Below, piece after piece: positions 33,660-61,343 of a stretch of 64,000 nt of DNA (the first letter of the stretch is position 1; each line of letters opens with the position of its first letter). Position numbers and translations under genes: made by a program. Location: positions 35,342,001 through 35,406,000 of the forward strand of contig CM097885.1 of the NCBI GenBank assembly GCA_044892525.1. Direction: 5' to 3'. The notes under the pieces were generated by a model that was not told where the DNA came from, did not search any database, and worked only from the letters and a program-made list of their open reading frames with translations. Origin of the DNA: Schmidtea polychroa. Lineage: Eukaryota.

Positions 33660-36089
33660 TGTTAGACGCAATTAAATTCAAATCTTCTTCAAGCATTTAT
33701 TTTTATTAACAACTTCAAAATTGTGTCGTTTACTAGCGTATTTAAACACCGAGGCGTGATAATTATTAATATTAATGTAATTACTGGTCATACATTTAAT
33801 TGATGTATTTAATATAATTTAATATAATATGATATAATTTAATATAGAATTTAAAAATAAAAATTTAACAGAAATAATCATTTCTACTAACTGATCTCAC
33901 TTCTACCATTTAACCATAATAATTTTATATAGGGTTTTACTAACTCCTTACATCCCCCTTCTTTAAAATGCTTTAACTTTTCTATATTCCTCGTTATTTT
34001 TCTCCCGTTTTCGTCTGTTAATAAGTAACTTCTTTCATGACTTCGTTTTATTACTGTGTATGGTCCTTCATATCTCTCGTGATCTTTGTTTCTAATTTCT
34101 TGTTCCACCAATACTTTTTCCCCCACTTCTAAGTTCCGAGTTGTGCCAATTTCTTTCGCTTGCTGTCTTTTAGCCTCTAATTTCCGCATGATTTCCTTTC
34201 TATCCACTTCATTATTACTATGCCATTGCGATCTATTAATCTTTCTCCCAAATATAATTTCTGCTGGAATCACTCTAGTAGTTTTTTGAGCTGTCGCATT
34301 TAAAACGTATTCTATATCAGGTATTAATTATGCCCAGCTTTTTTTAACTCCTTCTCTGAGTGACGCGTTAATATAGTCTCTTATAGTACGAAATTGTCTT
34401 TCAATTACACCATTAGTATTATGATGATAAGGACTCGAAAATATAAACTCAATTTCTGCTGCTTTTGCTAGTTCTTTAATACTATTTGCTTCGAAATTCT
34501 TTCCACAATCAACGTGTAGTTCCTTAGGGGCTCCAAATTTCAATATCTAATTATTTAACAAAACTGCCTTAATTGTATTTTCATCTTGCTTTCTAATAGG
34601 AGTTAGAGATATGTATTTACTGTAATGATCGATTTTTGCACAAATATATTTTTCTCCTCTGAAGATTTCTCTTAATGGACCGCAAATATCCATGTATATT
34701 TTCTCCATAGGTTCTGAAGCTTGAATTACTCGAGTTTTTTCTTTTGACTTTGTAGTTAAAACTTTGTTTTCTGACATGCTTCACATATTGAAATAGTCTC
34801 TTTTACTTCATTTAGCAAATCTTCCATATCAAAATTGTTCCTAATATATTTCATAACTTTTTCTACTCCTGCGTGGCATAATAATAAATGTGTTTCCTTA
34901 ATCATTTCTCGTCTTTTTGTTTCTGGTATCCATATTTTGTTTTGATTGGTATAGATAATATTTCCTTTTAACATATATTTATTATTTTTTCTTTCATTTA
35001 TTTGATCTTTTATTTCTTGTATTTCTGCATTATCTCTTTACCATTCATTTCCATTATTTTCGGTCATCAATGTTAACAATCTAGTTTTTAATCGCCCTGT
35101 TTTGGGGTTATCATGGTCCATCAAACATTGTACACATTTGCCGCATATATTTCTAGACAGCATATCTGCATTCGTATGCGCCGTGCCTTTTCTGAACTCC
35201 ATTTTTATGTCTAAACTGCTCAAGTAATTTATCCACTTTTGGAACTGTGCTGTTATAGGCTTCTTTGTCGTTAACATAAAAGTTATTGCTTTATGATCAG
35301 TGCGCAAAACAAACCGTTTACCATATAAATAATGGTTGAAATGGCGGCAGAAATAATATATAGCCAAAAGCTCTTTTCGTGTTATACAATATCCTCTTTC
35401 ATGGCTACTCATTGAATGGGGTCCATATGCAATAAGGTGTTCATGCCCCATTTCATCTCTTTGTGATAGTACAGTTCCAATTGTATCAATGCTTGCGTTT
35501 GTATCTAATATGAATTCTTTCTTGAAATCTGGAAATACGAGAACTGGCGCTGTAGTCAACGCCATTTTCATTTCTTCGAAAGCTTTCTCACATTCCTCAG
35601 TCCAGATTATTTTTTCATTATTGCTTCCACATATGCTTTCTAGCGCTCTTGATTTTGTTGCATATTCCTTAATAAATCTCCGATAATAGTTACATATACC
35701 TAAAAAGCTTCTCAAATTCTTTATACACTTAGGCCTCTGAAATGATTTAATAGCCTCAATTTTACTTTGATCTGTCCGAATCCCCTGACTGTTAATAATG
35801 TGCCCTAAAAACTTTACTTCACTCTTTAATAACTGACATTTTTCTGGGTTGATTCTCAATTAAGCTTCCCTTATTTTCTCTAGAACCTTTCCAAACACAT
35901 TGTAATGTTCTTCAATTGTTCTTGTAAAACTTAAAATATCGTCTAAATACACCATAACTCCTTCTTTCCATAGATCTTTCAATATTTTTGTCATTAATTT
36001 TTGGAATGTACCCGGTGCCGCTGCAATGCCAAAAGGTATTCTATTAAAACAAAATTGCCCTTCTTTAGTAGGAAATGCTGTCTTTTCTT
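33660..36089 (-). mobile_element. 5'-truncated Gypsy LTR retrotransposon (RT-RNase H-integrase plus 3' LTR 33660-33952)
   Basis: YLDD at ~35940, RNase H (GYCITRKELLA), HHCC and integrase core (HHNTNGVIERQFR), YEGPY. PPT AAGGGGGA precedes a TG...CA LTR. In-frame stops and frameshifts. Confidence 0.95.
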
Positions 36090-39136: not shown

Positions 39137-40029
39137 TAATTTGCATTTTTATTTTTTTTAAATTTTAATGCTCCATCCTGCCAATTTAATAAATAACCGG
39201 CAATTATATTTGTTGTTGATTTAATTATAATTTTTCCTTTAGAATTATGTTGTCAAATTTCGAAAAATATTTTGTCTAGAATTAGTTCAATTCACATTTT
39301 GTGATGGAAATAAATATTCGACAGAATTAATCTCATTTATTATATTGTTAGAGTTATAGGAAAATAGTTGAAAATAAAAAGTAATTAAAATAAAAATCCA
39401 TAAGCAAGATAAATTTAACAAATTTACGAAAGTTAATTACTTGAAAAATTGAGTGCCGAAATTTGTGAATATCAAAAACATCGATATATTTACTGATTCA
39501 TAGTCAAGCTTTTTAATAAATACAATATCAATGGAAAAGAAATCAATGGTGAAATTTGAAAAAAGTTCTTATAAGTTAATTAAAAATTAGTAAAAACTAA
39601 AACCAGTATTTCTCGGAGAAACAGGTATTAGCAGGTGGAAAATGAAAAGTAAAACATGAATACAATAATTTTAAATTGATTAGGGTCCCTACTTATTGCT
39701 ATTTAACAAATACAAACTAATTAACTAATTAATTAAAATACGCTGATCAATGTAATTGGTCAAAAAATCCTAATGCTTGACAGACATGGTGACAATCTGT
39801 AAAGCGGTGATAAAATAATTTTATTTTGTTTTTTAATTATCGGTTTTCATTGTTTTGTAATTAGATTACAAAAGAAATCGGTAAAGTTAATAATTATCTT
39901 TAAAGGGAAATAAAGAATTGTTCTATCAACTAGGATAATTGTTATTTAGATAATTTAATACGCGTGATCGTTATGTTGACAAATAAATTTTTTGTGTTAG
40001 ATATTTTTATTCTTTATAATAAAGGACAC

Positions 40030-40345
40030 CAGCGCCGTACTATCGCAAGTGCAACAAGTGCAATCGCACTGAGCCCCCTATTTTTGAGGGGCCCCAAATA
40101 TTAAATACATTAGAAAAACTTCTCCAATACCATAAATTACTACGAATTGAAAGAAAAAAAAATTTGAAAATTCGAAATTCGTTTAACTTTCAAAAAAATC
40201 TAGTTGGCAACGATTTAATTTGAAACAAATATACCTAATAATTCAGTTGTGGTTTAAATACAATCAATAAAAAATTAATTCAAATTTAAAAAAAAAATTT
40301 TTTTAGTTTCTGCACAGGGCCCCCAAAAGTTTCAGCACGGCGCTG
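40030..40345. mobile_element. hAT MITE
   Basis: TIRs CAGCGCCGT / ACGGCGCTG; perfect 8-bp TSD AAGGACAC. Confidence 0.92.
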
Positions 40346-40824
40346 AAGGACACGTGAAGTCAGATTACAAAAGTATTTCCTGGCCGAAACAATTAAAAAA
40401 AATCCAACAACATTATATCAGAGCAATTATTTTTGAAGATTTTGGATTAATTGATGATTTGCTGATTGCTATTATCCCCGGATTTTAATTCCTTTTTTAT
40501 TTTAAATACAAGTTGACTTACTTGCTCAGATAAAGAGTAAATTACTGAGTAAATGCCGATAATCCCCAAAGGAATTAAAATAATGTTGATCCAATATCGG
40601 ATAATGTCTTTCAGAAAAGTATAAAAGGAAAAGAGATAAACTATCAGTAGGTTGAAGAAAGAAAATCACTATACTACTCTATTCCCGCTGAGCTATATGG
40701 GTTGTGATTTTTTTTTTCTAAATTATTTTTTTCATATTTATTTTGTAAGTTAATCAAAAAATTATTAATACACACATAGTAAAAATTACATATTAAAAAC
40801 ATAAAAATTGAAATTAGTTTATAT

Positions 40825-40908
40825 AAAAAACTAAATTCAGTTTGGATTCGAACCGCAGTTTATTTGAACCACTATGCTACTCTATTCCCACTAAGCTATC
40901 TGAGTTGC
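40825..40908 (-). ncRNA. tRNA-like Pol III unit in the left end of the Polinton
   Basis: A-box TAGCTTAGTGG, perfect B-box GGTTCGAATCC and a T6 terminator; no convincing anticodon arm. Partial second copy at 40667-40705. Confidence 0.55.
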
Positions 40909-41019
40909 ATTTTTTTTTATTTATTTCTCTATCTATCAATCAATCTCTCTTCTATCTAATTTATACATTTAATCAATCTCCATCTATTAATTGTGTCCCA
41001 TATTTTTTATTTAAATTCA

Positions 41020-41170
41020 TTCAATCTAGAAATATTTGGAATCATATCATTACCATAGGTCTGAGTTGTAACACCATTACTTAAAATATATCGTTTATCA
41101 TCATATGCATTCATTACTATTTACTTAAATTCAGAAAGAAAAATATGATTTTTAGTCCTTATAGACTAAT
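41020..41170 (-). pseudogene. Protein-primed DNA polymerase B, extreme C-terminus
   Basis: IRTKNH...MNAYDDKRYILSNGVTTQTYG is the Polinton pPolB terminal DDKR motif. Confidence 0.75.
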
Positions 41171-41174
41171 CTGT

Positions 41175-42350
41175 TACTGATTTTTGTTCTTGGTATGTTC
41201 CTTGGATTAAATCAAAAATTATATTAATAGATGTTATATTACTTTTATTAATAGATGATGATGAAACACCGCTTCTTGAATGACATGATTCTAGAAATCC
41301 TATTGCTATAAAAAGATGGAATCTAGCAGTAGGAAGATTTATTTTAAAATCTATAGGATATGAAATCTCTTTTACATTTACAATTCCAACTTTTTTACAC
41401 CACGATTTATATTGTTCTGATTGATTTGGAAGGATTACCTTATTAGTCTTGAAAACCTCTTGTACTGGGGTTTTCGAAGTTGAAGATGTAAAACGGGAGA
41501 GGGGTAGATTAGGGGATAGTGAAAAATACAGTGAGCAAGAAATTGTTAGAAGATGTTTAAAAAGGGTCGTAAAACAGACAAATATGAAAAAACGTAATTA
41601 ATAGTAATTAATTAATTAATTGGCTAATGGGAAACCCGAGACAATGGAGAACCCGAGCGATGAAGAAACCGCGAGCGCTGCAATTTGAAAGGATAAACAA
41701 ACGGGGAATTCAGAGGACAATTATCCAAACAGCCTGATAAACGAGGGTAAACAACAGAAAGAGGATTATGAAGAGGGTCAACAGAAATAGCTAATTAAAG
41801 AATGAAAATTAAGGAAGTCAAAACCAATTAGGTAAAAAATGGGGCAATTACAACGATTAAAAGAGTATATAAGGAAACTCCAAATTCAGATAATCGGCAG
41901 TAGCCTTAGGTAGAGAAAAAGAAACCGAAGATAGGAATTTGAGAAATAAAGTCAAGAAAAAAGGGAATTATAAGAGGAACTGAAGAGTTAGAAGAGGAGA
42001 GTTCGGAAGAGTTCGGATCTAAAAGAGTTCGGATCAGAGGGTGGAATCAAATAAAAAGGTGAAACTTATTTTGAAATCGCACAAGGTCGAGACGTTCCAG
42101 ATCGAAGTTCGATTGGAGATTAGGAGCAAAATCGTGGTTAACTAAAAGTTGTAATTATTTATTGAGAATTGTAAATTTGCTATAAAACAAATATACGTTG
42201 AGAGTTGTGTTTATTAATTTTATGAACACTTGGAGTCAGAATAACCAACGGTTGATTTTTAGTATCATAAAACCAAACATATTTACCATTTTTTCTAATT
42301 TTTCCTCCATCTTATAGGATATTATTCATTATTCCATCCTTCAATTAAAT
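41175..42350 (-). pseudogene. Polinton minor capsid (penton) remnant split by a solo LTR
   Basis: FKINLPTARFHL and NITSINIIFDLIQGTY resemble penton motifs; located directly after the MCP. Confidence 0.5.
41461..42279 (+). mobile_element. Solo LTR (5'-deleted) inserted in the Polinton
   Basis: Colinear with 58025-58814 over ~800 bp; ends AACCAAACA; no clean TSD. Confidence 0.8.
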
Positions 42351-42354
42351 TTCT

Positions 42355-43499
42355 ACTTTTTTCTCTATCAAAATTACATAAAAACAATTTCTACAAAGCC
42401 TGTATTCTTTCCAATATTAATTGTAAAATTAACACCATTTAGAGATAATTTTTCATCTTGATCAGATACATCAAAACAAAATATAGAATATAAATTTTTA
42501 AAATCAATCAAGCGTAATCTACTCCGAATGCTTAACAAGAATTTATATATGCATGATATGGTTGTGCTTGTTGATTATTTTTAAAACTAAAATTCGTTCG
42601 GTCTAAAGGATAATAAGTTGTATTTAATTGAACCCTTAGAGAATGAATCTCTTTATCTCCGTCAAGTGATTGAATGAATTTAGAATCATTCTTTTTAAAA
42701 TTTGGCGTTTCTTTAAGCATTATAAAAATATATCGAGGTCTTGAATTTAAAACTTTTGGTTTCCAAATATATTTAGTTCCTGTTGATATACCAATATTAG
42801 TTGTTATTCTTTGAAGATATTTTATAGTTATATGATTTTCATTATTCATTCTATCCATTATTTTGGTTTCTAATCTTGGATTACATGTCATTGATGGAAC
42901 TAGTAACATAAGGGCCTAACATTTTATTATTACAGCTTGATTCCCAACTGTTCCAAGCAAACCACTTTTCAAATCATTATTCTTTGTCATTGAAAGTTCA
43001 AACGGAATGAGATAAATCAATCGGTTGTAATTTTGAAAGACTCCAAATAAAGTTTTTAATGGAAACATTTCTAGAACACATTCCCCTTGTATAATTAAAC
43101 TCGCTTTTTATAACCTTTTTTTCTACTGCTCCATCACCAACATCTGGAATCCAACCACTATGTTGTTTTTTAAAATCTGATTCTGTCACCAGGACAATTT
43201 ATTCTTTCTAATTCTGATGGTCCTAATTTTATAGCTATATCAGCAAATAAATTTAAAACCCAATTATGTTCAAATGTAAATTTGTCAGCTTTTACATTTC
43301 CTGTTATTGAAACTTTGAAATATAAAAGTGAATTACAATTATCTAGAGGGTTTGAAGATTGGTTAATATTAAAATATATTTTACCAGTGTTATTTATTGC
43401 TGTTTCACTAGCTGTTGATGGAAATACATCCATGTAATCGAGTTTCCAAATATCATGATTGAAATAAAAAGTCTTGTCAAAATCAAAACTTGATGCCAT
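42355..43499 (-). pseudogene. Polinton major capsid protein (double jelly-roll), frameshifted
   Basis: INNTGKIYFNI, SLLYF, NWVLNLF..IKLG..ELERINCPG, SRPRYIFI, LRVQLNTTYYP, FKNLYSIFCFDVSDQDE. Confidence 0.85.
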
Positions 43500-43539
43500 T
43501 TTTAATAGTATTTTTATAAAAAACTTTTATATTTCTCAA

Positions 43540-44533
43540 CTGTTATTAATTTTAATTTAAAAAGTCGTTTTAAAATTGCATTGATTTGATTTTAAGTATT
43601 ATTATGTCCTGGTTTTGTTGCTTCTAATAATTTAACCAGATGCTCAAAAATGAAATTGGATTATCTGGAAAATAAAATATATTCTCTGAAGGAGTCTTCC
43701 CCAAGCTTGTGGTACCATTCTATGGGAACCTGTTATCTAAACCTTTTCTTCCTATTAGTTTTTCTTCTTTAAAACGATAGAGCTCTTGTTGTTTTTATTC
43801 TATTTTGTTTTTCTTCTTCCTCTTCTTTCTCTAGTTGTTTCTCAGCTTCTCTTTCTAGTTGTTTTATTCTTTCACCACTTTCTTGCTTTATCCTTCTCCG
43901 TGCTTGTTTTTCAGGTCTTGGATAATCACTTTCATTTTCAACAGTTTGAATTTCAACTCAAAATTTTTATAATATATTAATCCATTAAACCCTCATACAC
44001 CCTCTACTAAATCTATAAAATCAACAATTCTTTTTTTATCAACTTGTAAATTTCTAGTTGTTCCTTCAAAAGCATTTCCTTAAACACATAATAATAATTC
44101 AGGTGTTAGTTTATATTTTTTATTATTAATTGTATTGAAAATGAAAAATAGATTATCTTCTAATGTAATTATAAATTTATTTTGATTTATCCATAATTCT
44201 CTTCCTTCTTTATCCCCTTCTATAAGAACAATTTCAGTTAACCTTGGACGATTTAAAGCTTGAGGAAATGATTTTAAATTTACATTAAATTTTAATGTTT
44301 TTATATTTGCAGATTATTTGGCAAGCTATAGCATGAGATTGCGCTATAGCATCAATAGTCGGTATTTGAATTTCTTGGTTTTCTATATATTCCAATTGTT
44401 AGGTTTTCTTTTCATTGCGAATATTATTATTCGAAACCTCGTTTGCTTTGGTTAATATTTTCAAGTTCTCGTTGTATTTATTAGAATCAAAATTATTAGA
44501 ATTGGAAACTATTACAGTTGGACATTGATCCAT
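43540..44533 (-). pseudogene. Conserved Polinton accessory ORF remnant
   Basis: KYKLTPELL and C-terminal YFPDNP..LVKLLEATKPGHNN..QINAILKRL, resembling a recurrent Polinton ORF end. Confidence 0.45.
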
Positions 44534-44539
44534 TTTCTA

Positions 44540-44815
44540 TTTATAAATTCTACTAAAGGAATTTACGTTTAAATGATTGTTTCATAAATTGTTTTGTATT
44601 TTTATTCAAAGCAATATAATTATATCTTGTATTCCAATGATTTCTAAATTTATTGTATTCATCTTTTTCTAATTAACCCAAAAATAAATCATTATAAATA
44701 TTATCTTGGTCACTTTTATTTAATTCAAAGAATATATTATTAATCAGAAAAATAAATGATCCTAGAATTAATTTTCTTAAAGCATTAAATACTGAACCCA
44801 AAAAATCTGTAGGTT
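44540..44815 (-). pseudogene. Possible packaging ATPase (A32-like) C-terminal remnant
   Basis: IFFELNKSDQDNIYND...EY..F..HWN..YNYIAL pattern; Walker motifs absent. Confidence 0.35.
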
Positions 44816-44879
44816 TTGAAGGAAATGGATTTCAGGTTTTGCCTGCCTCCAGGTTGTTGAAATAAACGAAGTCAAGAGT

Positions 44880-45513
44880 TGGTTGTAATTCTCACTGATA
44901 AAATCTCTCTAGAATTTCTTCATCATTCAAATCATGTAGTTTATAAGTAAATGGTTTTGTGTTGTATATTGTCTGGATGATAAATATTTCCTTGCTCCAT
45001 GAATGTATTATTCCTTTTTCAAATTTATTTTTCCATTTAAATATTCTAACTCTGTTACCTACATTAAATTTTTGTTTTTCAATCAAATCATTATTAGCAT
45101 TATTATTTTCATGTGTAATTTCTCGAATTAAATCAATATTATATTTTGCTTCGGTTGGAGTTGTTTTTATCATTCTATGAACTTTATTATTATAAAAATT
45201 CATTAAATTTGATTATACATCAATCTAAATTCTATTTACTCTTTCTGTAAACATTTATTTGCCAATCTATTTGAGGACTCGAATAATTTTTCAAATGCTT
45301 CTTTTATTGTTGATCCTTTTTTATCTAGTGTATAAATCAATAACCGTTAAGATGTATTTATAATTTTCATTATTTTTCGAATTTACTGTTTCAATTAAAT
45401 CTGCTGACCAAATATTATCTTTATTAAAAACTTTAATTTTCAAATATTTTTTATTATTTCTATATTCTTTGTGTAATTCAGTTGCTAATATTCAGTTGCT
45501 CCATCTAACTCAT
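44880..45513 (-). pseudogene. Polinton retroviral-like integrase
   Basis: ATELHKEYR, DNIWSADLI, YKYILTVID, YNNKVHRMIKTTP, KFNVGNRVRI, FEKG..WSKEIF, TYKLHDLNDEEI; internal deletions. Confidence 0.9.
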
Positions 45514-45514
45514 A

Positions 45515-46287
45515 TTAAGCTCGCCTTCGGACGGATTCATAAAATAAATTTATAAAATAATGAGTTTTAACTTCTTGAAACAAATATTCTTTTAAAATTA
45601 TTTTACTTCCTTTTGATAAATTCTTTTCTGCTTTTAAAGACCTTAAATTTACCCAATTTTAACATTATTTTATTTATTCTTCAGCAATAAAATTAAAACT
45701 AGAAATTGGTAATGTGTGATCTAGCTGCTATACCCATCCTTGATTTTCCCAATTCATTCGATCATAAAATTGAAATTCAATCCATAGATGGAAATTATCT
45801 ATTGAAAATCCTAAATATTTTAATAATGTTTGACTTTCTTTCATTTGTTTTAACGCTCCATATAAATGATTAATTAAATTAACTTTTGAATTTTCATTAT
45901 ATCGTTCTTTAGCCCTCTTTTATTTAATTTTTCATTATTCTTTTGTGAATAATCTTAATGATATTCTAATATTTTTGTTCACATTCTTTACACTCTGAAT
46001 TATTAACATGCTAATCTCTCTTTAATCTAATCCTAAATTCATTTGTTGTTTTTTCACTAGTACATTTTGTGCAAACCTTTCTTAATGAAACAATTTTCAA
46101 ATTTTTTATTCCTAATAAACGCTTAATTCTTAATAAACTTCTTATACATTTCTTCCATTAACTTATTTTCGATACTTTCACATTTCTTACACATACCAAC
46201 AAAATAATATTTTTCTTTTCTTTTAATAATTTTCAAAGATTCATTTGATTTTTCAAGATTACATTTAGAACATATTTTAAAAGACAT
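45515..46287 (-). pseudogene. Zn-ribbon repeat plus HNH endonuclease of the large-DNA-virus type
   Basis: KICSKC..CKKC and KVCTKC..CKEC ribbons, then KYLG...WIEFQF...MNWENQG..LDHTLPISSF...NWVNLRSL..KN.SKGSK; four premature stops. Confidence 0.8.
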
Positions 46288-46377
46288 TTTTTAAAATATT
46301 ATTTAGCATTAACATTATTTTATTAAGAATTGAGCAAACACTAGTATGTCCTTTTTTAAAACACACTTGAGCCCATT

Positions 46378-46566
46378 TAACCCAAATAATTATATTTCTC
46401 CTTTATATTTAGCCCATGGGAATTCTGGTAAATTAGAACTTTCTTGTTGTAGGTCTCCTCCCAAATAAAAATCACTTTTTAGTTTATGTATTTTAGTTCT
46501 TTCATGTATTGCTTTATGAGATTTTAAAATATATTTGTTACAAGATTCGCAATAATGTTTAGACAT
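46378..46566 (-). pseudogene. C2H2 finger fused to the start of a parvovirus-type PLA2 (PLA2X-like) domain
   Basis: YCESCNKYILKSHKAIHERTKIH, then GGDLQQ..LPEFPWAKYKGE and, after a frameshift/deletion, YNYLG. Confidence 0.55.
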
Positions 46567-46635
46567 TTTTATAGTAAAAATATTAAAAATAAAAAATAGT
46601 AAAACTCACATAACACATAAATTCTATTTCTATAA

Positions 46636-46914
46636 ATGAATGAGATAGAAAACAAAATTTTTAATTTTATGAACGAGAGATTGATAGACTTTAGAAGTAT
46701 ATCACCCGAGGACAAAGTTAAATATGGTGAACGCTATTATGCACTATGTCATCAGATGATTAAACTCATTATTAAGAAAGAATGCCTTATTAATGATTAT
46801 AATAATAAAATAAATGAGTTTAGAGATTTAACAATAAAAGATCAAATGGGAAAGGGTGGATATTATTTAATTCTATTCCCACAATTATTAAATATCTTAA
46901 AAAATAAAAATTAA
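46636..46914 (+). CDS. 92-aa Polinton-associated ORF of unknown function
   Basis: ATG-initiated open frame, divergent from the minus-strand viral genes. Confidence 0.35.
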   Translation: MNEIENKIFNFMNERLIDFRSISPEDKVKYGERYYALCHQMIKLIIKKECLINDYNNKINEFRDLTIKDQMGKGGYYLILFPQLLNILKNKN

Positions 46915-47009
46915 GGAAAATTTATTTTCAATCTAGAAATATGTTTAATCATATAATGTTAAAAATAAATATGAAAAAAAATAATTTATAAAAAAAATGA
47001 GAAAAATAT

Positions 47010-47094
47010 GCAACCCAGATAGCTCAGGGAAAATAGAGTAGCTTAGTGACTCAAATATACTGTAGCTCAAATCCAAACTGATTTTAGTTTTTTT
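47010..47094 (+). ncRNA. tRNA-like Pol III unit in the right TIR (inverted copy)
   Basis: TAGCTCAGGG A-box, degenerate B-box AGCTCAAATCC and T7; reverse-complement homolog of 40825-40908. Confidence 0.5.
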
Positions 47095-48687
47095 CACTGA
47101 AAATAATATTGAAATTACTACAATATTGAAAATAGCATTAAAGATATTATGAAAATTAATATTAAAAATAATATTAAAAATAAATAAATAATAATCTTTT
47201 ATATTTTTTAGAATATTTAGTTTTTAAATTTAAATATAAAAATAATTTATTGAAACTGGGTGTAGTGGCCGATTGAGAAGCATCGTCACAAGTCTTTCCA
47301 ACATATTCGGATCGATCGCTAAATGTGGACATTTATTTCGGTGTTGCTTTCAGACCTTTTTCGAATTCGCTTTCGAATTCATTTGTACTTTCATGCAATG
47401 CGCTTAAAACACCGTTGAGATCACCTAATTTGAGAGAGTGAAGTGATTAATATGGCCCATTACAAGTATTGAATTGATTCTAATGTATGAGTCTGACCAG
47501 CTTGTATATTGGAATTGATTTGAAACACGAAAAAGGTTAGAAAAATAAAAAAAAGATAAATAAAAAAAAGATCTGGATAAAAAAAACTGTTGAGAAGACA
47601 GTGGTATAAAAAACAACAACAAATACCCTGTCCTCTCATAGCAGTTTTACTATTTTTTATTTTATTCATGCAACCTCAAGTAGTGTAGTTTTTTACTAAC
47701 AAAGTCTAACAAAATTTTCCACGGGGGGGGGGGGGGTATGTGGTCTTGCGGGCCCATGGTTTTGCGGTGCCACTACCATCTACTACCAAGTAGGTTAAGG
47801 TATAGTATCGATATGGTATTTTATAATTTCTAAATCTTAAGCATATATAATATACATAAAAATTTTGAAATTAAGATATGATATGTTACAATTACTACAT
47901 TTAATAACATAAAATTTTGTATTTTATGAATGCAAAATGGTTAAGATACACACTTAGCAGAAAAAAGAAATTTAAAAAGAAAGTTAAAAATATTCAAGAC
48001 GGTAGAATGCAAAAGCATTTCAGATGCTTCGACGCTGTTAGCATATGTTTGTTGTAAACAGGTAAAAACAAATCATGTTTGAACAGGAATTTCATTATGG
48101 ACATTTTTGTCCACATTACGGTCAACGTGCATTTTTTTATACCTAGAAATCTGTATGACACCATAAAATAAATTAAGCGGCAAATTATTAATTTAAAAAA
48201 AAGAAGAATTTACATTGAAAAATTTTTCAAACTTAAGTTTGTATTCAGGCGTTATTTACATTTAAAAAATAATTTTGACAAAAATGTCCACAATACCATA
48301 TAAAGGTTAAAAAAAATACACTTATGTAAAAGATAAAGTGTAAATCAACAGCTAATTTATTTCAATACAAATTATTTAATAAATATGTGAGAACATTTCA
48401 CATGATTACGTCATGTTCGTGAACTATCTTTATATAATAACTATCATATAGGGACCGGTAAAAAAACTTCGTTTTTATCAGACAGAAAATATATGATGAT
48501 CAAAGTCTTAATTTTTCAATATTTTTTTAGAATCGTCTGATAAATTTTTAAATATCTCTTCATCTTTGTATTCATCTTTTATGTAATGGATTAATCTTGG
48601 TGTTTTCTTTATTTACGGTTCACAATACTCTTTCAAAACTTGCTTGAGATTTGGTGTATGGTCTATCATACACTTTAACATAACGTC

Positions 48688-49990
48688 TGTTACGACGGCT
48701 AGTTTCTGACTCATCGTGTCCTTTTCCAATCCAATAACTAAAACCCAACACAAAACAACTTTATTCAAACTTTATCACAATTACATTGTTCACGCTTTGG
48801 AAGTCTTGATAGTGTATCAGCTTTTATGCGATCTTTAACCATTCGATATTGAAGTGCCTGTATCAACAATAAAAATACCATCATCGATCAGCAAACTCAG
48901 AATTGGAGTTTCTGTTAACGATTTCTTCAGTACATAAAAAGCTTCTTTATCCCGTTCATTCCATACGAATCTGTTTTCTTTCCTCAACATCATCGATAAT
49001 GGTTCTGCTTTCTCTGCGTAATCCTTAATAAATTGTCTATAATACGTACACATTCCAAGAAAAAATAGTAAAACAGCTATGAGAGGACAGGGTATTTGTT
49101 GTTGTTTTTTTATTTTATTGTAATTCTTGAATTGTTTATGTTATTCATAGCTGTAATTTTATCCGGGTCCATTTTAATACCTTCTTCACTTACGATATGG
49201 CCCAAATATTTAACTTCTTTGTGAAGAAAATTACATTTATTTGGTGATAATTTAAGTCCTGCCTCCTTTATTCTTGATAATATTTGCCTAAATCTCTGAT
49301 TATGTTACTCTAACGTTTTCCTAAAAATCAACACGTCGTCGAGATAAGTCACACAAGATTCCAAATTTTCATTTAGAAAAATTATACTCATCATGTTTTG
49401 AAATGTATCCGGAGTTGCACAAAATCCGAAAGGCATTCATTTAAATTCAAACTGTCCAGATTCTGTACTAAACACTGTCTTCTGAATGTTAGATTTGTTT
49501 AGAGATACCTGATAGTATCCACTAGCCATATCTAAAGTTCTAGAATATTTTGCATCGCCTATGGAATCAAATATTTTAGCACTACTAGGTATCGAAAATG
49601 TTAGTCGGGTTGTTTTCGCGTTCAAAGCTCGATAAACAACACATATAAGAATGTCATCATTTTTTTCTTTACGACAACAATTAGAAAATTACACGGAGAT
49701 CTACTTGGTTGTATGATTCCACAATCTAGCATTTCTTTCAAATAACTCTCAACCTCTGGTTCGATTACTTTTGGTATCCGTCTAGGCTTAAACGTTATAG
49801 GTTGTTCATCAGTTGAATCGATATAATATTTAATGACATTTGTTTTCCCAATATCCCATTTGCTTTTGCTAAATATTTCAAAAGATTTCCATATCGTTTT
49901 AGCAATTCCACTTTTTCTCTTGTTGTGAAAATGTAGGATCCATTTTATGCATAATCTTCTGTACTATTTCTGTCATTTTGCCCCGATCTA
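48688..49990 (-). mobile_element. Degraded Gypsy pol (RT to RNase H start) joined to an LTR 3' end remnant
   Basis: TLDMASGYYQV, PFG, YLDDV, KYLGHIV, FLGMCTYYRQF, FIVDT. 48688-48790 carries the reverse complement of the AAGGACACGANGAGTCAGA LTR motif. Confidence 0.85.
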
Positions 49991-50029
49991 TACCCGTTTT
50001 AATTGCATATAACTGGTGTGTTACAGGTA

Positions 50030-50117: not shown

Positions 50118-53100
50118 TAACCTTGAAAATAACTTTGAAAATATAACTTTAAATAATAATAAGAATAATAAGAAGAAGAAGAACTTTCAAAATACCTTTG
50201 AAAATAACTTTCAAAATATTACTTTCAAAATAATAATAATAATATCTTTGTTTAAAAAATGATAAGTCATATGTACTCTAATGACCTTTGTAAGATGATA
50301 TAATAATTTCCAACGAATTACTTACATAACCAGGTCACTAGACCTTGATATCTATTGAATGATGCGGGAATGCTTGTATAACTAAATTAAGTAAGTATGT
50401 TTGTCTTCTGTGTCAACAGTATCACTTAAACTAATAATTCTCCCTTTTATCAAGTGGAATTAGAAGAGGAATCAAAAATAAAGACTGCATTTTCAACAAA
50501 AGATGGTCAATATTGTTTTAACCGAATGCCTTTTGGAATTGCAGCTGCCCCAGCAACTTTTCAAAAATTAATGACTCAAGTTTTGGGTGATCTTAATTGG
50601 AGAGAAGCAATTGTCTATTTAGACGATATCCTGATATTTGCAGACAATGAAATCGAACATAAAAAAAGACTAGAAAGAGTTTTTCGAAAGATTCAAGAAG
50701 CTGGTTTGAAAATAAGCTTAGAAAAATGTTGTTTTAACAAACTAGAAATAAAATTTTTGGGACACATTATAAATAAAAATGGTATTAAGACAGATTATGA
50801 AAAGATAAAAGCAATGCAAGAATATGAAAAACCAAAATGTATTAAACGTTTAAGAAGCTTTCTAGGCTTAACAAATTATTATCGAAAATTTGTTAAAGAT
50901 TACGCCAAGTATGCAAGACCATTAGAAAGGTTATGTGGGTCTAACAAAGATAAACTTATATGGACTGAAGAATGTGAAACAAATTTCAACACGCTAAAGA
51001 AAGCGTTAACGTCTACCCCAGTACTAGGATTTCCGGATTTACGAAAAACCTTTATTTTAGATACAGATGCTAGTTTCGATACGATTGGGGGAGTGCTTTC
51101 GCAGTCGAGTAGTAATGGACAAGAACAAGTTATTGCATATGGATCAAAGACAATGAATAAGCACGAAATCGGTTACTGCATTACGCGAAAGGAATTGCTT
51201 GCAATCTATCATTTTACTCAGCATTTCAAACACTATCTATATGGAAAAAGATTTACTTTAAGAACCGATCATAAAGCTATAACCTTTATGATAAATACAA
51301 AAAAGCCAATTACAGCACAATTCCAGACATGGATTAACTATTTAAGTGGGCTAGATATCAAATTAGAATACAGAAAAGGAGAATTGCATGCTAACGCAGA
51401 TGCCCTATCAAGGAAAGACTGTACTTCATGTAGTCAGTGCCAAACAGTTCATGAAAACGCCAAGGTAGATAAAAATAAAACTAAAATATTGGCCATAGAA
51501 AATATGGACCAAGAAATAAAAGTAAATAATGAAGGTGTAATTTTTAATATACATAAAGACTTATGTCACGCAGGGGTAAAAAAAATTTACGAATATGCAC
51601 GGAAAAATATGAAAATGAAAATTAGTGAAAATGAAGTTAGAAGAGTGATTGAAAATTGTGAACAGTGTCAGAAACGGAAGACTGGACAGAACGAACAAAA
51701 GAACCGCTGATTAAACAGAGTACAGATGAAGTTTTCAAAGAGATATTTATTGATTTCTGCGGACCATTTAAGAAAACAATTCATGGAAAACAATATATTT
51801 TAGCTATAATTGATCAATTCAGTAGGTATATATCATTGACGGCAGTTGCTCATCAGGATGAAAAGACGACGGCAAAGATTTTAAGAGAAAATTGGATTTT
51901 GAAATTTGGTGCCCCTAAAATCATTCACTCCGATAGAGGAAAAACATTTGAATCTCAACTCCTTTTAGAAGTGTTGAAAACTCATCATATTACAATAATA
52001 AGGGATGCAATTGCAATTACGTTAAAAGACAAACGGCATAAAGATTGGGCAGAAATATTGCCAGATGTGGAATTTATGTTAAATGCGACGATACAGCAGA
52101 CAACCGGATTTTCGCCCTCTGAAATAATATTTGGGCGGAATATTTGTAGACAATGGATGGAAAAAGAGAATTTGGATATACAAAATAATGATGCTAATAA
52201 TCGGAGAAGGGAGATCGTGGAGGGAATTAAACATAAACAAAACATAGAAAAGAATTTAATTACACAAAATTATGGGAATTTTGAAGTTGGAGACCAAGAT
52301 TTGGTTAAAAAAGAAAATACTAGAAAGATGGATGAACGTTATGAAGGGCCTTATGAAATAACTGGAAAACGACATGACAGAAGCTATGTTCTAAAGAATA
52401 AGCAAGGCAAAGAAATAATTCGAAATGTAAAATGGATCAAAAGTTTTAAATGCAGGGGGATGTAAGATGATATAATAATTTCCAACGAATTACTTACATA
52501 ACCAGGACACTAGACCTTGATATCTATTGAATGATGCGGGAATGCTTGTATAACTAAATTAAGTAAGTATGTTTGTCTTCTGTGTCAACAGTATCACTTA
52601 AACTAATAATTCTCCCTTTTGTAGATTACGCAATTCAATGTACTATAAATAGTATAACGATTGTGTGTTCCGTTTAGATTTTTGAAGTGAATAAAGATTT
52701 CTGTGAAACTATGTCTTCTTCTAACAACCTTGATGAATCATCTTCTTTGTTTACAAATGATGAGTCATATGTACTTTATTTAACTTGGTGAGTCACCGGT
52801 TCAATGATCGGATCAAAAATGTTACTAAAAATAGATGCCTTTGTTATTAAAAATAGAACGTCCTTGATGAGTCAGTGGATGAGTCATGGTCTTTGTTTAA
52901 ATGACCTTGATAATAAAAACTTGATAATAATCATAATGATAATATTAATGATTATAATAACCTTGTGAGTTGTTGAGTGTGAGTAGTACCTTTGTGACTA
53001 TTACCCATAGGGGGACAAAATATTTTGTCGGATAAACTCAGAGTATATATAATAATAATAATAAAAATTTTTGATGACTCATCGGAGTCATTGTCTATTC

Positions 53101-57837: not shown

Positions 57838-58814
57838 TGTTGAGGTTTTAAAAGTAAATTATTAAATTATATAGTTCAGATTAAAAGGAAAACCGAAATT
57901 GAATGGCGGTCAAGCAGAGAAGCAAGGGCAAAGAAAGATATGATAAAAACAGAACTATAAAAGGGTACAATCAGACACGAAATTGGAAATGCGCAAACCT
58001 GAGGAAGTGCAATAAAGTGAAAAGTTATCGAAATTGAAGCTGGAAAACGGGAGAGGGGTAGAGTAGGGGATGGTGAAGAAGACAGTGAGCAATACATTGT
58101 TAGAAAATGTTTAGAAAGGGTCGTAAAACAGACAAATATGAAAAAACGCAAAATATTAATTAATTAATTAATTGGCTAATGGGAAACCCGAGCTAATGGG
58201 AAGCCCGAGCCAATGGAGAACCCGAGCGATGAAGAAAACCCGAGCGCGGCAATTTGGAAGGATAAACAAACGGGGAATTCAGAGGGCAATTATCCAAACA
58301 GCCGGATAAACGAGAGTAAACAAAAGAAGGGGAATTACGAAGAGGGTCAACAGAAATAGCTAATTAGGGAATGATAACTAGAGAAGTCAAAACTAATTAG
58401 GTCGAAAATGGGGCCATTACAACGATTATGAGAGTATATAAGGAAATCGGCGGTAGCCTTAGGTAAGGAAGAAGAAACGGACAATAGGAGTTCGGGGAAT
58501 AAAATGAAAGAAGAAAAAGAATTATAAGAGGAATTGAAGAGTGAGAAAAGGAGTACTAAAAGAGTTCGGATCAGAGAGCGGAATCAAATAAAAAGGTGAA
58601 ACTTATTTTTAAATCATACAATGTCGAGACCTTCCAGAGCGGAGTTTGATAGGAAATTGTGAGAAAATTGTGGTTAACTAAAAGTGAAGTAATTTATTGA
58701 GAATTGTAAATTTTCTATAAAACAAATATATGTTGGGAGTTGTGTTTATTAATTTTTGGAATACGTGTAGTCAGAGTAACCAACGGTTGATTTTTAGTAT
58801 CATAAAAGCCAACA
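57838..58814 (+). mobile_element. Intact solo LTR with 4-bp TSD TATT
   Basis: TGTTG...CAACA termini, TATT on both flanks; homolog of 41461-42279. Confidence 0.9.
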
Positions 58815-59333
58815 TATTAATTGGTTTAGTTACAATAAAAATTTTATTTTAGTTAGAAATTACTTGTTTGTGTTGGTATGACTGAGTAGCTCGTGGTTGT
58901 GATTGGGATCAATGGTATGATGAAAGTAGAAATATAGTTTGGAAAACTGAAAACATAACAAAAAAAATCACTGAACTGATGCTAAGTTTTCTTTTGGAGT
59001 TAAACCCGCTCCCGCGCTTAATACGAATACGTAATAACTTGATATTGATATGTATTTACATTTAATTTTAAGCTTAGGTTTATTGGAAGACTTATGGGCA
59101 GACCGGGAAGCTGCGCTGAAACAAGTGGAGGTTTTTCCTGGTCAGAATTGAAATACCGTATATACTGGAGTACAAGTCGGAAAATTTCAACTTTTTCTGG
59201 AAAAGATAATATTAATCCCACTTATACTTATGCTAAAAGTAATGAAAACATTATTTCTGAAATGTGGAATTTCGAATTCAATGAATTGGTTTGAAGACGA
59301 TGCACTCTACCAGGATCTTGATGAATGTGATAC

Positions 59334-61343
<2,010 letters not shown>

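Follow-up and report, generated by a model that had tools for sequence, protein, structure and literature searches.

Putative RNA polymerase III units of tRNA origin near the ends of planarian Polintons: a candidate small-RNA cassette

The window analysed in this work is a 64,000-nt stretch of the Schmidtea polychroa genome (assembly GCA_044892525.1, contig CM097885.1, positions 35,342,001 to 35,406,000) that contains the remains of a Polinton, one of the elements proposed as ancestors of adenoviruses and other DNA viruses. Genes of all four Polinton types are present in it as broken pieces on the minus strand (Table 1), together with two kinds of repeated segment: an ~85-nt unit, here called U, with the internal A and B boxes and the oligo-T run of an RNA polymerase III (Pol III) gene, and a longer segment, V, with a predicted RNA fold. 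The U repeat is Polinton cargo, occurring in these elements far beyond chance, and the cluster formed by U, V and two further tRNA-like units (W and X) may be a small-RNA cassette. The copy in the window belongs to an older family, with a capsid ~42% identical to that of the young family described below and another gene order, and it is, to judge from what is left of it, an old, deleted and decayed relic.

A preliminary description of this stretch had placed two tandem U units on the minus strand at the left end of the Polinton and an inverted one at the right end. The left pair is as described, one unit full and the other reduced to its 5' part, and the right unit is indeed an inverted copy ending in a T7 run, although its B box is degenerate. 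The full left unit and the right unit share 85 of 103 nt (E 1e-22), each U unit carries two A boxes 19 nt apart, and the full left unit is the only part of the whole window that passes a generic A-box/B-box/T-run pattern. The AT-rich flank upstream of the units is mirrored as had been proposed, but only over ~88 nt (40666-40744 against 46962-47049, 80% identity), and the true mirror partner of the right unit is the partial left one; the 3' flank of the full left unit differs from that of the right unit. Element homology continues ~570 nt past the right unit, to about 47666, so the window units are subterminal, and neither an intact terminal inverted repeat (TIR) nor a terminus was found in the window for this copy. 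In long-TIR copies elsewhere, U does lie inside both repeats. A weaker A/B-box stretch noticed at 47257-47340 does have A-like and B-like boxes, but these head the longer, conserved and structured segment V.

Table 1. Features of the window, followed by loci elsewhere in the genome
Feature	Position	Strand	Remarks
Full U unit	40825..40912	minus	Two A boxes, 40888-40898 and 40869-40879; B box 40844-40854; T6 40825-40830
Partial U unit, 5' part only	40664..40712	minus	First A box 40685-40695, second A box cut; ends at 40664
Right U unit	47005..47094	plus	Imperfect A boxes 47020-47030 and 47039-47049; degenerate B box 47064-47074; T7
V, predicted to be a structured RNA of ~390 nt	47257..47650	plus	A-like box 47263; B-like box 47309-47319
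Predicted stems of V	47353-47363 with 47528-47538; 47467-47526; 47587-47644		Basal stem; long hairpin; 3' hairpin
Protein-primed DNA polymerase B (pPolB), C-terminal tip, last ~55 codons, rest missing	40992..41153	minus	tblastn 40-44% identity, E 1.5e-5; query is PF03175
Open reading frame (ORF) remnant common to other old family copies	41169..41474	minus	L044 67%, L047 71%; no Pfam match
Unrelated repeat inserted in the Polinton	41470..42283		82.6% to window 58024-58818; also in L039, L049
Broken double-jelly-roll major capsid protein (MCP) gene	42380..43517	minus	PF21738 E 5e-7; 31-47% identity to young-family MCP, four pieces
Packaging ATPase gene, C-terminal piece	44571..44735	minus	E 5e-7; query resembles PF04665, below cut-off
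Broken retroviral-type integrase gene, N-terminal zinc finger	44868..46566	minus	45-63% identity, four pieces; query PF00665
21-nt inverted copy of 47643-47663 (V tail)	46586..46606	minus	100% identical; flanks the U-V block
92-aa ORF upstream of the right U unit	46636..46911	plus	L203 homologue at 82%
Inner copy of the terminal AGTAGT-type motif	47677..47700	plus	Another repeat starts at 47708
Terminal cassettes of other copies	L031:2643-2896, L034:6565-6873, L123:2423-2571 and others		Bounded by inverted AGTAGT terminus
Host tRNA-Lys, tRNA-Arg and tRNA-Cys arrays	G000:C4:76.66 Mb, C140/C333/C474, C1:269.25 Mb		Cys motif: 990 matches

The genome searched comprises 781 Mb. It contains a young full-length Polinton family with 2,440 capsid candidates, 150 of which were scored; its copies match PF03175, PF00665 and PF21738 above the cut-off and PF04665 (the ATPase) below it, have AGTAGT/ACTACT termini, and are flanked by 6-bp target-site duplications in L031/32 and L033/34. 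TIRs with AG..CT termini and such a duplication are also present in L055/56. In the genome an 18-letter U pattern is matched exactly 1,193 times, and its reversed control not once. For the first 30 matches by position, to which some elements contribute both ends or more than one unit, a Polinton gene was found in the locus in every case and an ACTACT terminus 0.83-1.01 kb downstream of U in 23. Furthermore, the first 100 matches include 12 outward-facing pairs 12.9-17.3 kb apart, against 0.29 expected, and two inward-facing ones. The old-type U pattern has 14 matches, and 11 of the 12 outside the window run into element flank; the twelfth (L204) is a 5' fragment that lacks flanks, with a flanked unit lying 860 nt away. 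The units were described as part of the Polinton and not as independent insertions of a short interspersed element (SINE), and this is supported: no free copy was seen among the 30 young-type loci or the 12 old-type loci outside the window, U is bordered on both sides by element DNA, and neither target-site duplications of its own nor variable A tails were seen at it, all of which speaks against a free tRNA-derived SINE. A generic A/B/T-run pattern matched 176 times in 895 kb of the loci analysed, which partly overlap, so that the matches are not independent, against 0-2 times in each of 10 local shuffles, and all 176 fall in the known unit types.

Two loci showed further arrangements. The integrase of L033 (5338-6723) shares its ORF, as a fusion, with a zinc finger and a phospholipase-A2-like domain. 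L041 (G000:C3:25.49-25.58 Mb) is a tandem array with a period of ~976 nt in which each repeat combines U and V with the 5' portion of the capsid gene, a satellite born from a Polinton end.

A type-2 Pol III anatomy of the units is supported, as U combines internal A and B boxes, tRNA spacing and an oligo-T run. In 30 sampled copies, whose A box was pre-selected by the search pattern, the B box GTTCRANNC is kept in 28 and is accompanied by a run of at least five Ts in 27. When U, U-divergent and U26 were compared (19 pairs), the A box showed an identity of 0.86 and the B box one of 0.93, the latter figure being partly circular because the B box was the alignment anchor, whereas the middle reached 0.38 and the flanks 0.52-0.57; the divergent U entered this comparison through its flank homology, and W and X were excluded, being found through their boxes. 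The A-to-B spacing is 43-44 in all eight units considered, equal to that of the host tRNA-Cys and tRNA-Lys. W scores 32.4 bits with the Rfam tRNA model (gathering score 29 bits), with many broken pairs, and shares a 15-nt stretch of the anticodon arm, with one mismatch, with host tRNA-Cys; W is, by these matches, of tRNA ancestry. X and the old U give pseudogene-grade cloverleafs with mismatched stems at a relaxed ARAGORN score, a setting that also makes many spurious calls. The full left window unit is called tRNA-like ('possible pseudogene') at this score and has no stable fold (z -0.1); compared to three host tRNAs (Lys, Arg and Cys only), it scores best with Lys, with a z of 5.1 that owes much to the boxes. 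The fold of U is about that of its shuffles (z about 0), and U looks like a promoter plus terminator that has lost the shape of a tRNA. A functional tRNA gene was rejected as an explanation, as no intact cloverleaf was found: ARAGORN at its default setting calls no tRNA gene in the whole window, its relaxed calls are mismatched, the pairs of W are broken, and the Rfam scan of 39500-48500 gave a single chance match (E 6.1).

Some observations on tRNA-like and small-RNA matches stand beside these. X, which may be tRNA-Asp-like, gets a TCA anticodon call with broken stems at L079:524-596 at the relaxed score; the host tRNA-Lys, tRNA-Arg and tRNA-Cys genes form long single-isotype tandem arrays with periods of 424, 278 and 281 nt; and a host flank (L150:2049-2110) matches Rfam mir-753, a planarian family, at the gathering score.

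V is conserved at 65-93% identity across nine representatives of 66 copies, and its hairpin core has 1,890 exact matches in the genome, with U upstream in 28 of the 30 sampled. The predicted fold of the sense strand has a z-score of -4.8 for the window copy, and two young copies reach -7.6 and -8.1, versus -1.0 to -3.6 for the antisense strand; the G-U-rich middle folds one-sidedly (z -5.6 vs -1.4 on the other strand), whereas a fold of the 3' hairpin is predicted for either strand (z -6.7 and -5.6). In an alignment of 21 copies 95% of the cells pair, and 12 of the 78 pairs have changes in both partners. Shuffles gave 6.3 such pairs, with 1 of 500 reaching 12, and slid controls gave 2-6, although the structure was drawn from one of the aligned copies and the kinship of the rows inflates such counts. 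The 25-bp hairpin has a 7-nt loop and 97% of its cells paired, and 8 of its 25 commonest pairs are G-U, which favours an RNA over a DNA palindrome. The layout of V is a head followed by hairpins, the head being only weakly tRNA-like (z 0.6-2.6 against the three host tRNAs). Of 30 copies of V that were sampled, 26 have both the A-like and the B-like box, and in 25 of these 26 the first T5 comes 319-377 nt further on. A-rich runs with AATAAA also lie within V. The window holds a second, inverted fragment of the V 3' end (49057-49121, 96% to 47608-47661), which interrupts Gypsy-like coding remnants.

In intact copies U lies 0.8-1.2 kb inside the terminus, within a cluster of up to four tRNA-derived unit kinds, and in a long-spacer subfamily all four stand in a row as X, W, U and V. 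U occupies the capsid end in 22 of 25 young elements picked by capsid match; four of the 25 also have it at the polymerase end, 14 do not, and seven could not be resolved there, so that the presence of units at both ends does not hold as a general feature. The four positive elements have long TIRs (for example one of 1,189 nt with 98.6% identity and one of 889 nt with 99.4%), and in the 14 negative ones a short TIR of 250-390 nt was located. Of ten more elements, chosen because the length of their capsid was unusual, four carry U on the capsid side and six lack it there. At nine MCP-side ends without U, V is missing as well, and the terminal cassette stands 40-350 nt from the capsid ATG; one such element (L055/L056) has a target-site duplication. 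On a capsid tree of 16 rows, in which the window fragment sits on a very long branch and the root is not usable, the presence of U needs 2-3 changes, and 0% of the bootstrap trees allow a single one. The units had been called outward-facing, which is correct for the young family and the window but not for older families (L121, L123 and L129), in which they face inward, the block reading toward the first ATG; in L121 and L129 V ends ~50 nt before it, and L123 has two divergent units in each 510-nt TIR. This gain, loss and inversion of the block, the last of which we infer by comparing copies, make the cluster a swappable, invertible accessory module. The 21-nt inverted copy of the V tail in the window is likely a breakpoint relic of such an inversion, the flipped block being carried by L024/L025.

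Each Polinton end is a cassette of 150-390 nt bounded by inverted copies of the AGTAGT terminus, and these cassettes are of several unrelated sequence types; they could form terminal hairpins in replication. In the window, the remainder of the terminal cassette beyond the inner AGTAGT-type motif was not found. An unplaced contig (L050, G000:C920:1-6061) is a 99.8% duplicate of window 43935-50000, and it is probably the second haplotype or an assembly duplicate. Elsewhere in the window, positions 33890-35859, 50430-52462 and 60307-61305 contain what we take, from the translations, to be Gypsy-type reverse transcriptase/integrase remnants and a restriction-endonuclease-like ORF of a non-long-terminal-repeat element.

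With the position of the units, the conservation and tRNA spacing of their boxes, the T runs, the ancestry of W, the strand-biased predicted fold of V, and the gain, loss and inversion of the block in hand, we favour, with moderate confidence, a Pol III small-RNA cassette with a layout like that of the tRNA-miRNA-encoding RNAs (TMERs) of gammaherpesvirus 68, acting in trans, in which V would be the likely functional RNA. The A and B boxes would be bound by host TFIIIC, and Pol III would then make unstructured RNAs of ~75-85 nt from U, W and X and a folded RNA of ~370-390 nt from V. The 25-bp G-U-rich hairpin of V would be the likeliest functional product, either as a substrate or as a decoy of Dicer/Drosha, and the U-type units would probably serve mainly as strong Pol III/TFIIIC landing sites beside V. 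Accessory cargo that works in either orientation fits a trans-acting RNA. From the Pol III start and stop signals and the predicted fold of V, it is likely that many Polinton copies make small RNAs of their own.

Several points weigh against this reading. The conservation of the boxes would be equally expected from TFIIIC binding alone. No significant fold is predicted for U, for X or for the short head of V (z -0.5 to +1.4), the boxes of V are non-canonical and a T4 run occurs ~90 nt into it, and the gap before the first T5 was discarded as a sign of one long transcript, since 360 nt free of T5 are found in 70% of shuffles and in 71 of 194 window segments. As the gap is not significant, the length given for the V transcript is a predicted one. 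To these the caveat on the paired changes in V has to be added. The nine MCP-side ends without U and V count in the same direction, and lineages that lack both and include an element with a target-site duplication indicate that the cluster is dispensable. No relatives outside this genome were found in viral or metagenome contigs with a single MCP query. Finally, assembled contigs of two presumed RNA runs of one study (X1 and X2) cover U and V, but so do contigs of two unlabelled DNA-like runs. Contig depth, which was uneven, with a peak over V and low values across W, X and MCP in X2, was not used as expression, because summed depth cannot rank parts. Loose ends of poly(A)/poly(T) in the two runs X1 and X2 were likewise set aside: genomic A runs coincide with them or lie close by, and they may reflect variation in run length or internal priming.

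A less likely reading is that the units act as TFIIIC-bound barriers in chromatin, or as landing sites kept free of nucleosomes, and protect the first promoters of the element against heterochromatin, with any RNA as a by-product. U retains just the boxes, their spacing and the T run, without a fold, and the units stand in tandem between the terminus and the first gene, as a barrier would; two studies in fission yeast report that TFIIIC sites and tRNA genes act as barriers (PMC4502379, PMC2040200). Moreover, planarian Polintons are targets of PIWI-interacting RNAs (piRNAs) and of histone H3 lysine 9 trimethylation (H3K9me3), according to the part of PMC8532177 that deals with them, and this targeting is a motive for an anti-silencing RNA or a barrier alike and evidence for neither. 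However, a barrier would need neither T5-T9 terminators at a fixed distance nor a strand-biased covarying V fold, and the cluster is often at a single end.

Less probable than a barrier is that the units are passive relics, i.e. captured host tRNA genes or heads of tRNA-derived SINEs that hitchhike in the element and were copied to both ends by TIR homogenisation. Their tRNA ancestry, the transposition of sister lineages without the cluster, the repeated changes of presence on the MCP tree and the variable number of units and of internal 16-nt repeats would all fit, but under neutral decay the A and B boxes should not have been preserved to the extent given above while the middle diverged, the pairing of V is kept across copies only 65-80% identical, and no free source SINE was seen in the young-type and old-type loci inspected. 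We give slightly less credit still to V acting in cis, either in Pol II expression or in DNA replication (as a structured leader, a 3'-end signal or a single-strand origin hairpin), and being no Pol III gene. Its end close before the first ATG in L121 and L129, reading into it, its AATAAA-containing A-rich runs and the folding of the 3' hairpin on both strands are what such an element might show; however, the young, highly amplified family has the block in inverted orientation and other families lack it, and the G-U-rich middle folds on one strand only. The Pol III small-RNA cassette remains the reading that we prefer.

In the part of the literature that we surveyed, we found neither a non-tRNA Pol III RNA described in an animal Polinton nor a paper describing Pol III units in the ends of these elements, although Repbase or Dfam may annotate such ends; a densovirus precedent for an RNA like the adenovirus virus-associated (VA) RNAs was not found in the literature either. 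If transcribed, the cluster would be a virus-style small-RNA cassette in an endogenous element targeted by host piRNAs, and it would illustrate a route to such genes, from capture of a tRNA through loss of the cloverleaf to retention of the boxes. Cassette-plus and cassette-minus sister lineages are found in one genome, which makes the question testable with existing RNA and chromatin data. As a speculation that we think unlikely, animal Polintons might own an equivalent of the VA RNAs or TMERs in the form of an exchangeable Pol III cassette, derived from host tRNA genes that were captured, whose V RNA would be processed to a microRNA (miRNA) or would saturate Dicer/PIWI, blunting piRNA silencing and aiding the amplification of cassette-bearing lineages to well over a thousand copies.

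Regarding known systems, the preliminary description had compared U to the adenovirus VA RNAs. VA RNAs are about 160 nt long and antagonise PKR, Dicer or RISC. VA RNAI and RNAII share with the cluster the internal A and B boxes, the T-run end, a carrier of the pPolB/double-jelly-roll virus lineage and, for V only and as a prediction, a strong fold; they differ in lying inside the genome and not at its ends, and have no sequence or Rfam similarity to the units, the Rfam scans giving no VA-family match at E<=10. A multi-stem fold like theirs is missing in the unstructured U and predicted in V (z -4.8 to -8.1), so the analogy does not suit the 85-nt unit and would fit its neighbour V, which we consider the better VA/TMER-like candidate. 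tRNA-derived SINEs have a tRNA-derived head with A and B boxes, and V has a similar head-body-tail layout; in contrast to them, U has shown no free copies, target-site duplications of its own or variable A tails.

Polinton-type genomes have been reported to carry tRNA genes. The portions of PMC12220804 that we draw on give 558 tRNA hits in a survey of Polinton-like viruses and virophages, with tRNA and other non-coding RNA hits in protist Polinton-like viruses, and one MELD-virus figure in PMC8502044 bears tRNA flags, the passages of the latter considered here mentioning neither planarians nor non-coding RNA. Those genes are called tRNAs and, in these passages, read as codon compensation, whereas the units described here are broken cloverleafs, below the default ARAGORN score, that keep only promoter and terminator. 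The inverted-repeat TFIIIC boundaries of fission yeast (PMC4502379, PMC7474672) resemble the cluster in having B boxes in inverted repeats that flank a domain, but they are chromosomal, and here full units with A box, B box and terminator ride a mobile element.

The gammaherpesvirus 68 TMERs (PMC4337559, PMC8223928), so far as those sources describe them in the parts used here, are also a virus-borne cluster of type-2 Pol III genes with tRNA-like heads. Their transcription and miRNA yield have been demonstrated, whereas transcription of the U/V cluster is a prediction; moreover, U, W and X have no downstream hairpin, and the carrier here is an integrating Polinton. The adenovirus promoter is canonical type-2 in the account of PMC8223928, and the A box of the TMERs is triplicated; multiplied A boxes are thus found in both TMERs and U, being duplicated in the latter. 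Finally, V resembles the TMERs in its predicted layout, a head, here weakly tRNA-like, followed by hairpins, and the cluster and the TMERs are both accessory, the TMERs for replication.

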